The notes beneath the pieces were generated by a model that searched no databases, had not been told where the DNA came from, and saw only the letters and a list, made by a program, of their open reading frames with translations. A DNA stretch of 64,000 nucleotides from the sequence record MT446421.1; one strand, given 5' to 3'. The stretch comes from Escherichia virus TH55. The position numbers and the translations under genes are program-made. The first letter of the stretch is position 1. Every line of letters starts with the position of its first letter. Shown here one piece after another: positions 5,614 through 6,979 of the stretch.

Positions 5614-6078
5614 TCATTCAGGCTCATAATCCACCACTATTAAATCAATATCAGGAGTAAACATGTCGATTAATTTAGAAACCTTTTCCCAATCTCCACC
5701 TGCAATACCACAACCAATGCGAGGAATGTAAATTACCGGTTTAAACAAAAGGGTTTCTGCTTGTAGATTTAATTCTATCATACAATTTACTAAAGCACCA
5801 TAATCAAGATTAGGGCCCGGTTCATATTGAGTGTACAAATTATAACACATACCAAACCCAGTAGGTTTATGTTTAAAAACAATAGACATATCGCCTAATT
5901 TATCACGAGAACCATATTCAGTGGTGGTTTTATCTATTTCTAAAACTTTTGGATAGGCCTTCGCCAACTGTCCAGCTACACCAGAACCCATTGTGTGGAA
6001 GCAGTTACAACCATGAGCAATAATATTGCCTTGAAGAAAGAGGGCGACGATATCGCCCTTAATATACTGGGTAATCAT
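5614..6078 (-). CDS. macro-domain-like protein (putative ADP-ribose binding/processing)
   Basis: 154 aa; GDIVALFLQGNIIAHGCNCFHTMGSGVAGQL resembles the macro domain N-terminal motif and glycine-rich loop. Confidence 0.45.
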   Translation of the reverse strand: MITQYIKGDIVALFLQGNIIAHGCNCFHTMGSGVAGQLAKAYPKVLEIDKTTTEYGSRDKLGDMSIVFKHKPTGFGMCYNLYTQYEPGPNLDYGALVNCMIELNLQAETLLFKPVIYIPRIGCGIAGGDWEKVSKLIDMFTPDIDLIVVDYEPE

Positions 6079-6434
6079 TTAGAGTTCAATCCTCTATTAT
6101 ATGAATCCACTAACCTGTCAACCATACTGGTGCAGGCCGCCTTATATTTTGCACTTGAAAGAATGCAATCCATTTCAAATAATTTCTTTTCATATTTGTT
6201 GGATAATACATTCTTTTTCAAAAGTGTATGTTCAACATCATTTTGGCCATCTTTATATGCCGCGGTGAGCTTGGCGCTGAACTGGATTACACAATCCACA
6301 TTGCTTGGTGCGCAATAATCTTTAGCCGTCCTCGTTGCATATTCTATGATGCTGTTGTTGTCATCGCTCTGTACTGAAGCTATTCCTCCCATGCTGAATA
6401 CTAACCCTATGGCTAAAGTGATAACTCTTACCAT
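6075..6434 (-). CDS. secreted hypothetical protein
   Basis: 119 aa with N-terminal signal-peptide-like hydrophobic segment. Confidence 0.4.
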   Translation of the reverse strand: MVRVITLAIGLVFSMGGIASVQSDDNNSIIEYATRTAKDYCAPSNVDCVIQFSAKLTAAYKDGQNDVEHTLLKKNVLSNKYEKKLFEMDCILSSAKYKAACTSMVDRLVDSYNRGLNSK

Positions 6435-6436
6435 TT

Positions 6437-6979
6437 TTAATCCACCGTTTTTAATAGGCCTCGTGATTTTAAGTAGTTAGCTTTTTCTAGGACCTGTGAA
6501 GCATACGTATTACCAGCTTTCACATTCCATCCTGCGTTATATGATGATAGTGTTTTCCTTATATCCCCCTTATGAATATTCAACCAGTATGAAAGCTCAA
6601 TGTAAGCCCAGCGTGCACTGTTCTCTCTCTTGCTTATCATTTTGATTATTTCTTTATCTGTCATTGTCCACCCAACCTGTTTCACGCGTTCGCGCACGGT
6701 TGGAAGATAATTTTGGAATATACCATATGCATGATGCTTATCTTTATTTAATCCAGTATTAATCCCAGCAGAACTCTCCTGCCAGGTTAAACCAGCCATG
6801 ATATATCCCAAACCATTATGTTGGTGCGGATTTTCTTTGTACTTACCATTTTTCTGGAACTGTTCTCCAAACGCATAAGCATATTGGAGGTTTTCCATTT
6901 GTTCATTACTGAAAGTAGGCTCTACGCTATGGGCAGACATACTAACTGTCAATAGTAAGGTGGCGATTACTTTTTTCAT
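6437..6979 (-). CDS. secreted lytic-transglycosylase-like protein (SLT-like)
   Basis: 180 aa; signal peptide MKKVIATLLLTVSMSAHS; motifs QESSAG, AYGIFQ, SYNAGW resemble the SLT domain. Confidence 0.4.
   Translation of the reverse strand: MKKVIATLLLTVSMSAHSVEPTFSNEQMENLQYAYAFGEQFQKNGKYKENPHQHNGLGYIMAGLTWQESSAGINTGLNKDKHHAYGIFQNYLPTVRERVKQVGWTMTDKEIIKMISKRENSARWAYIELSYWLNIHKGDIRKTLSSYNAGWNVKAGNTYASQVLEKANYLKSRGLLKTVD

Follow-up and report, generated by a model that had tools for sequence, protein, structure and literature searches.

Vs.1 and Vs of T4-like phages: a predicted exported transglycosylase-like enzyme beside a predicted exported protein named for a cytoplasmic partner

Do two small, adjacent proteins made early by T4-like phages act in the envelope of the host, even though one of them is named for a partner in the cytoplasm? 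The question is raised by a 64,000-nucleotide stretch of Escherichia virus TH55 (MT446421.1; the whole of this stretch is hereinafter the window), in which a reading made from the letters of the sequence without database searches had singled out two open reading frames (ORFs) as a pair of secreted early proteins, one of them resembling the soluble lytic transglycosylases (SLT). Both ORFs are indeed present on the minus strand, at 6437..6979 (180 aa) and 6075..6434 (119 aa), with the stop codon included in these coordinates, and they are the orthologues of T4 vs.1 and vs, respectively, in the form of Gaprivervirus alleles. Both genes are already catalogued: GenBank carries both labels, and the SLT resemblance was published no later than 2006. 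The explanation of the whole that we regard as probable is that, beyond this orthology, Vs.1 is an exported transglycosylase-like enzyme and Vs an exported four-helix protein. The sole point in it that is likely to surprise a specialist is the predicted extracytoplasmic nature of a protein known as the 'valyl-tRNA synthetase modifier'.

The transglycosylase-like features of Vs.1

Vs.1 of the window is 65% identical to and equal in length with T4 Vs.1 (UniProt P13311, 'hypothetical 20.7 kDa protein in vs-regB intergenic region'), which has the same position, signal peptide and motifs, so that nothing of substance differs between them. The family corresponds to phrog_600 (2e-67), whose label is 'unknown function'. 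Nevertheless, vs.1 orthologues from six of six genomes have been reported to match the SLT domain, at E-values of 0.012-0.74, in a study that also cites earlier PSI-BLAST results for SLT in T4 (Nolan et al. 2006, PMC1524935), and a GenBank record with the identical sequence names the product 'SLT domain-containing protein'. The three motifs that the sequence-only reading had quoted are all present on the minus strand: motif I, QESSAG (6764..6781; residues 67-72), with the putative catalytic Glu68 and Ser69; motif II, AYGIFQ (6713..6730; residues 84-89), with G86 and Q89; and motif III, SYNAGW (6527..6544; residues 146-151), with Y147, N148 and G150. The last of these corresponds to AYNAG, a motif of the family-1 lytic transglycosylases. 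Motifs II and III also conform to the patterns G-[LIM]-[MF]-Q and A/S-Y-N-x-G of that family, and depart from them only in distant relatives such as that of LPCS28. In an alignment of 50 relatives, with identities reaching down to 41%, the residues E68, S70, G86, Q89, N90, E128, W132, Y147, N148, G150 and Y159 are invariant and S69 nearly so. Alignment with hhalign places QES of Vs.1 on QES, and YGIFQ on SGLMQ, of the catalytic domain of E. coli Slt70, where the Glu aligned with Glu68 is, according to published knowledge, the catalytic Glu478.

The family as a whole is in keeping with the SLT assignment. On the Pfam SLT model PF01464, 49 of the 50 family members match at E<=0.1, the best at 1.3e-7, and precomputed PF01464 matches are found on several relatives. 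An AlphaFold model built from the family alignment is confident, with a predicted local distance difference test (pLDDT) score of 84.9 and a predicted template modelling (pTM) score of 0.79. Similarity to lysozyme-like folds had been set beforehand as a check on the SLT-like character of this ORF, and the top 17 Foldseek matches of the model in the PDB are all goose-type (g-type) lysozymes or lytic transglycosylases. Together with the motifs and the family-wide Pfam matches, the predicted fold upholds that character, and we predict with high confidence that Vs.1 has the lysozyme-like, alpha-helical GH23 fold. The alignment has no invariant Asp after E68 at the positions of the auxiliary acid of g-type lysozymes, and thus the site looks more like that of a transglycosylase than that of the goose lysozymes.

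Several points weigh against reading Vs.1 as an exported and active enzyme of this kind. This particular Vs.1 scores 14.4 bits on the Pfam SLT model, below the gathering cut-off of 21.3; its profile and fold E-values are weak against single solved structures; and the hhalign comparison with the single Slt70 C-terminal domain extends over 33 columns at E 0.061, which makes it a mapping of residues and not a proof. Searches of the PDB sequences, with single sequences as well as profiles, returned nothing significant for Vs.1 or Vs, and a search of NCBIfam returned no meaningful match. In the homologue from Cronobacter phage LPCS28, motifs II and III are altered to GIFGN and SYFGG, and catalysis by Vs.1 may therefore not be universal. 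Moreover, activity, export and cleavage are predictions for every member of the family. We predict catalysis by Vs.1 with moderate confidence.

Relatives of Vs.1 were recovered by tblastn in 2072 phage records, comprising T4-like phages of many hosts, Ackermannviridae and FelixO1-like phages; the proteins of phages UPEC07 and fPSFA are 100% identical to that of the window. The signal peptide and the Glu-Ser motif are kept in the distant homologues examined, and the Glu at the catalytic position in the Ackermannviridae and FelixO1-like ones. A tblastn search of plasmids with Vs.1 found no relatives, nor did a pattern scan of 185,579 species-representative bacterial and archaeal genomes of GTDB, at the sensitivity used. 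Vs.1 thus represents a widespread family of some 2000 phage genomes (Straboviridae, Ackermannviridae and FelixO1-like phages), found here only in phages, of what is predicted to be an early-exported murein enzyme. Two of its more distant settings may be recorded here. The LPCS28 homologue (locus L007, 1968..2504), in which the Glu-Ser motif is retained, lies directly upstream of two spanin genes, an arrangement that possibly points to a link with lysis or to a loss of activity. The FelixO1 homologue (locus L006, 2001..2549) follows directly downstream of rIIA and rIIB, which form another early locus related to the envelope.

Predicted export of Vs.1 and Vs

Both proteins begin with what appears to be a Sec signal peptide. 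In Vs.1 it occupies residues 1-18 (6926..6979, minus strand), with a predicted cleavage between AHS and VEP, i.e. MKKVIATLLLTVSMSAHS before VEP; in Vs it occupies residues 1-20 (6375..6434, minus strand), with a predicted cleavage between IAS and VQS, i.e. MVRVITLAIGLVFSMGGIAS before VQS, and with an alternative site between VQS and DDN after residue 23. Each N-terminus has a basic n-region, an uncharged hydrophobic h-region and small residues at -3 and -1. Neither protein has a lipobox, the Vs.1 signal peptide being devoid of a lipobox cysteine, and the early mature regions of both are acidic, which is compatible with export. Cleavage would reduce Vs.1 from 20.6 to a predicted mature 18.7 kDa and Vs from 13.1 to about 11 kDa. 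We also considered an anchor of the signal-anchor-release type found in certain endolysins, and rejected it: such an anchor is a weakly hydrophobic, Gly/Ala-rich transmembrane segment at the N-terminus, about 18-20 residues long and lacking a cleavage site, whereas the h-regions here fall short of that length, at about 10-13 residues, and AXA-type sites come after them.

A Sec signal peptide cleaved by signal peptidase I is expected to have a basic n-region, a hydrophobic h-region of 8-15 residues, small residues at -3 and -1 and a non-basic early mature region, and candidates were picked out by a simple heuristic for the n-, h- and c-regions. Of the 167 ORFs in the window that reach 60 aa, only seven pass it; the adjacent vs.1 and vs are among these seven, and most of the others are unannotated frames. 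Across the families it passes 48 of 50 Vs.1 relatives and 27 of 29 Vs relatives, and the failures resemble truncated gene calls. Given the rarity of such N-termini in the window and their conservation in the two families, the pair of signal-peptide-like N-termini is real and goes beyond chance. Furthermore, in both Vs.1 and Vs the first 20 residues vary more in sequence than any other part of the alignment, while their architecture is retained; with sequence varying and architecture constant, these N-termini behave like signal peptides. The claim of the sequence-only reading that both ORFs have signal-peptide-like N-termini is thus borne out by the heuristic and by family conservation, with the cleavage itself as a prediction, and the export of Vs.1 is predicted with high confidence.

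From these features we infer a course of events in which the Vs.1 precursor would leave by the Sec route and signal peptidase I would cut it behind Ser18, yielding a soluble, periplasmic, single-domain enzyme made before replication. Its active site would be of the family-1 lytic transglycosylase type, with Glu68 as the catalytic residue and no second conserved acid such as the goose lysozymes have. The enzyme would cleave the MurNAc-beta-1,4-GlcNAc bonds (between N-acetylmuramic acid and N-acetylglucosamine) of the host murein, probably giving rise to 1,6-anhydroMurNAc, the product of the non-hydrolytic cleavage that sets transglycosylases apart from g-type lysozymes, and its cuts would amount to a limited, local remodelling of the sacculus during infection, without lysis.

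Compared with the known family-1 lytic transglycosylases, such as Slt70, MltC and MltE of E. coli and MltF, Slt and MltD of P. aeruginosa, Vs.1 differs in having only one domain, about 160 residues long, and neither a lipid anchor nor accessory domains. In size and layout it comes closest to EtgA, the small specialised transglycosylase of the type III system of enteropathogenic E. coli; further specialised small transglycosylases of secretion systems are VirB1, IpgF, IagB and P19. Vs.1 differs from the EtgA-type enzymes in that it comes from a virulent phage, is pre-replicative and has no homology with them detectable beyond the motifs. To our knowledge, no envelope-spanning machine accompanies Vs.1.

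The site of action of Vs

The second ORF of the pair is where the sequence-only reading has to be amended: its signal-peptide-like N-terminus stands, whereas its treatment as an anonymous secreted ORF does not, for it is vs, annotated as 'valyl-tRNA synthetase modifier'. Vs is 46% identical to T4 Vs (UniProt P13310), which occupies the same genomic position and shares with it the four cysteines and an invariant C-terminal SMVDRLVDSYNRGL helix. It matches phrog_1256 (8.5e-33), and PF26829, 'ValRS_modifier', is present on all relatives. An AlphaFold2 (AF2) model of Vs (pLDDT 79.5) comprises helices at 24-40, 46-69, 74-90 and 95-116 and leaves the N-terminus unstructured, the pLDDT being below 50 for residues 1-22. 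Four cysteines, C41, C48, C90 and C101 (spanning 6132..6314, minus strand), are invariant in 29 sequences and border the loops H1-H2 and H3-H4 in the model. Among orthologues their spacing varies (CX5-6C and CX7-10C), for which reason disulfide staples suit Vs better than a metal site.

The Vs family is far more confined than that of Vs.1: tblastn found it in 807 phage records, all of them Tevenvirinae-type phages of enterobacteria. An exhaustive HMMER search with the Vs profile over 1.84 billion representatives gave eight clusters, all T4-like or spurious, and hence no informative distant family. The same search yielded two remote orthologues, P0121 and P0122, each encoded right behind vs.1 in a T4-like contig; both keep the four cysteines at variable spacing, and P0122 has a Sec signal peptide and P0121 a textbook lipobox, LSGC. 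In two divergent T4-like metagenomic contigs we further observed a third signal-peptide-like ORF between vs and tk.4 (L009 4324..4743 and L010 778..1185; 135-139 aa), which has conserved cysteines and an apparent cleavage site between ...SVNA and WEKLPGY, so that three predicted secreted proteins follow each other there.

The members of the Vs family are thus predicted to be exported, four-helix proteins of about 11 kDa with two disulfides that staple the loops, and as such Vs probably acts outside the cytoplasm. This conflicts with its name. Valyl-tRNA synthetase (ValRS) is a cytoplasmic enzyme, and the function for which Vs is named needs the cytoplasm, whereas the sequence features of the family predict export; the conflict extends to T4 Vs itself and is not peculiar to the copy in the window. 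The factor behind the name reportedly had a size of about 10 kDa, which is nearer to the predicted mature Vs (about 11 kDa) than to the 13.1-kDa precursor, gel sizes being imprecise. The name goes back to a classical T4-induced factor that binds host ValRS, and the biochemistry and genetics of that work, as it is cited in a later paper, describe a T4 factor binding the cytoplasmic enzyme, which weighs against an exported Vs (Muller & Marchin 1975, 1977, cited in PMC8076793). N-terminally His-tagged full-length T4 Vs was insoluble in the E. coli cytoplasm, which is weak evidence in the same direction as export (PMC8076793).

Expression and fitness data from T4 bear on both genes. A time-resolved omics study of T4 places the RNA of vs and vs.1 in the early class and detects the two proteins in the middle phase (PMC9697503 supplements); the two genes are thus expressed before the late functions, and the description of the products as early proteins in the sequence-only reading agrees with this. 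In a HIDEN-SEQ transposon study of T4, vs and vs.1 are non-essential, with 30 of 32 and 46 of 52 TA sites hit, respectively (bioRxiv 10.1101/2025.11.20.689424). According to the same source, vs is the gene most depleted in M9 glucose medium relative to LB medium (log2 fold change -2.19, adjusted p about 0), a clean vs knock-out has an M9-specific plaque defect, and vs.1 is nominally depleted in M9 (log2 fold change -0.87, p 0.0055, adjusted p 0.155). The mean insertion counts of the LB control are 26.6 and 22.6 for the two genes, against 179-652 for regB, vs.3, vs.4 and tk.4 (bioRxiv 10.1101/2025.11.20.689424). We note that, even in LB, the two genes thus lie about 7- to 29-fold below their four neighbours (Extended Data Table 6, sheets S2 and S8, of the HIDEN-SEQ study); the passages of that study concerning them class both as non-essential and carry no comment on the low counts.

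The M9 phenotype is compatible with a role in tRNA charging as well as with one in the envelope, and that the minimal-medium defect of vs also fits a role connected with amino acids or tRNA charging has to be set against the envelope reading. Two accounts of Vs compete. The first, a serious contender although short of being probable, holds that Vs is a cytoplasmic peptide that binds host ValRS, that its N-terminus is unused or only partly used for export, and that Vs.1 is an unrelated neighbour. Annotation and family name agree with it, as does the classical work in so far as it is cited in PMC8076793, and the plaque defect of the vs knock-out is specific to M9 glucose, a medium in which amino acids have to be made. 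Since regB-vs.1-vs-tk.4 is kept together as one block, the adjacency of the two genes says little, and Vs.1, in about 2072 phage records as opposed to the 807 of Vs, is independent of Vs. Against a cytoplasmic residence stand the predicted signal peptide, whose architecture is kept in 27 of 29 members despite the varying sequence; the lipobox of one orthologue in the same position; and the four invariant cysteines, which at their variable spacing (CX5-6C, CX7-10C) fit disulfides better than a metal site.

The second account, which we advance tentatively, as a possibility short of being probable, is that the vs product is a periplasmic, disulfide-stapled four-helix protein, lipid-anchored in some phages; that the 'modifier' label, now half a century old, was attached to the wrong ORF or reflects a secondary or post-lysis interaction; and that a role in the envelope, possibly with Vs.1, would explain the minimal-medium defect. 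Whether the minimal-medium phenotype is a matter of tRNA charging or of the cell envelope would follow from the site at which Vs acts.

Vs.1 and Vs as neighbours: joint and separate roles

Do the two proteins work together? An unlikely scheme is that of a periplasmic pair of enzyme and regulator, in which Vs would restrain or target Vs.1 and so prevent lysis by an early-exported murein enzyme, by analogy with Spackle (gp61.3), the periplasmic inhibitor of the gp5 lysozyme of T4. Like Vs, Spackle is small, phage-encoded and furnished with a signal peptide, and it is annotated as periplasmic; it is also helical and expressed early. Both Vs.1 and Vs are predicted to be exported, the ribosome-binding site of vs lies within the end of vs.1, and at every locus examined the stop of vs.1 and the start of vs either overlap or are almost adjacent. 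In the T4 transposon data the two genes have unusually low insertion counts in common, and each of them shifts in M9. A common function would account for this parallel, but a polarity of vs.1 insertions on the downstream vs would account for it equally well. Several points tell against a joint function: the fitness loss of vs.1 insertions could be mere polarity on vs, and adjacency is weak evidence where the block is collinear and tight packing is the norm in T4. Most phages that carry Vs.1 are without Vs, and downstream of vs.1 no small cysteine-rich secreted ORF was found in Aeromonas phage 25, Det7, FelixO1 or LPCS28; Vs.1 evidently works without Vs. A more literal version, Vs as a Spackle-like periplasmic lysozyme inhibitor, was rejected, since no sequence or fold similarity between Vs and Spackle was detected. 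The role in superinfection exclusion suggested by the sequence-only reading likewise finds no support in these analyses.

For Vs.1 itself, an improbable alternative to early remodelling is that it is an accessory lysis enzyme, a second, Sec-exported endolysin that would act as infection comes to its end. Such a role would suit the fold and motifs of Vs.1, which are muralytic, as well as the spanin genes next to the LPCS28 homologue, and some homologue records bear the label 'putative lysin'. The known endolysin of T4 is e, and the vs.1 genes of T4-like phages lie in the early tk-regB block and not beside lysis genes. With the RNA of T4 vs.1 early and its protein in the middle phase, as given in the supplements cited above, a highly active exported lysin would lyse the cell prematurely; and vs.1 is non-essential, whereas the T4 transposon library has essentially no insertions in t or in the spanin genes pseT.2 and pseT.3. 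The idea that Vs.1 keeps an SLT fold without being catalytic, and binds murein or serves as a decoy that would for instance block or recruit host transglycosylases, has in its favour the weak match to the curated SLT model, the diverged motifs II and III of distant relatives such as LPCS28 and an early export without lysis that suggests low activity, but it is quite improbable, since none of the 50 aligned T4-type relatives departs from the catalytic Glu or from any of the three motifs, and the Ackermannviridae and FelixO1-like homologues examined keep the Glu, a conservation typical of active enzymes.

Genomic setting

All genes in this region are carried by the minus strand, the stop codon being at the low-coordinate end of each ORF, and they follow the pre-replicative block of T4: tk, tk.1-tk.3, tk.4, vs, vs.1, regB, vs.3, vs.4 and onwards. 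The order regB-vs.1-vs-tk.4 is common to T4 and to all 27 of the 27 IMG/VR loci retrieved by the Vs profile. A stretch of about 2 kb around the two ORFs is 100% identical to Escherichia phage UPEC07 (MW250787; Straboviridae, Tevenvirinae, Gaprivervirus), and many other related phages have 94-99% identity over it. The stop of vs.1 and the start of vs are 2 nt apart, while the two genes overlap by 8 nt in T4 and by 1 nt in the contigs L009 and L010; a Shine-Dalgarno-like GGTGGA for vs (6441..6446, minus strand), read from the sequence, lies inside the last codons of vs.1. A scan for promoters and terminators gave no more sites than in shuffled sequence, and hence we claim no dedicated promoter.

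Upstream of vs.1 lies regB (6990..7487, minus strand), identified by the Pfam family REGB_T4 (3.2e-72) and by annotation. Its start may be placed differently: the mechanically called ORF, 6990..7505 on the minus strand, begins with a GTG at 7505 (171 aa), as opposed to the annotated 7487 (165 aa), and the Pfam match starts at residue 23. Downstream, the macro-domain gene tk.4 (5614..6078, minus strand; Pfam Macro, 5.6e-8) overlaps the stop of vs by ATGA. Its GenBank label is only 'macro domain-containing protein', and the transposon study identifies T4 tk.4 as AdfM, an anti-DarTG2 factor (bioRxiv 10.1101/2025.11.20.689424). In two loci, L036 and L037, tk.4 is 95% identical to the copy in the window and the adjacent vs 43-44%, which points to a recombination breakpoint at the vs/tk.4 boundary.

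Further along the block, a 92-aa ORF at the position of T4 vs.4 (7810..8088, minus strand) matches the Acb2/Tad1 hairpin domain (PF24729, 9.3e-16); it is annotated in MW250787 as a 'hypothetical protein'. We take Vs.4 to be Acb2, the nucleotide sponge directed against the cyclic-oligonucleotide-based anti-phage signalling system (CBASS). On the other side of the pair, a 91-aa ORF (4201..4476, minus strand) has a strongly hydrophobic N-terminal segment (MVYKVWTYISIFVIAGIAFIPTQ...), which suggests a membrane or secreted product, and no Pfam match; the label 'endoribonuclease' that it bears in MW250787 looks wrong. Indeed, over positions 3200..9200 of the window (L001) several product names in MW250787 have apparently been transferred in error: the ORF at the vs.3 position is labelled 'endoribonuclease', a 72-aa ORF 'pyrimidine dimer DNA glycosylase', a second small ORF also 'valyl-tRNA synthetase modifier', and a 175-aa ORF (8589..9116) with a Walker-A-like GGRQTGKTS 'internal head protein'.

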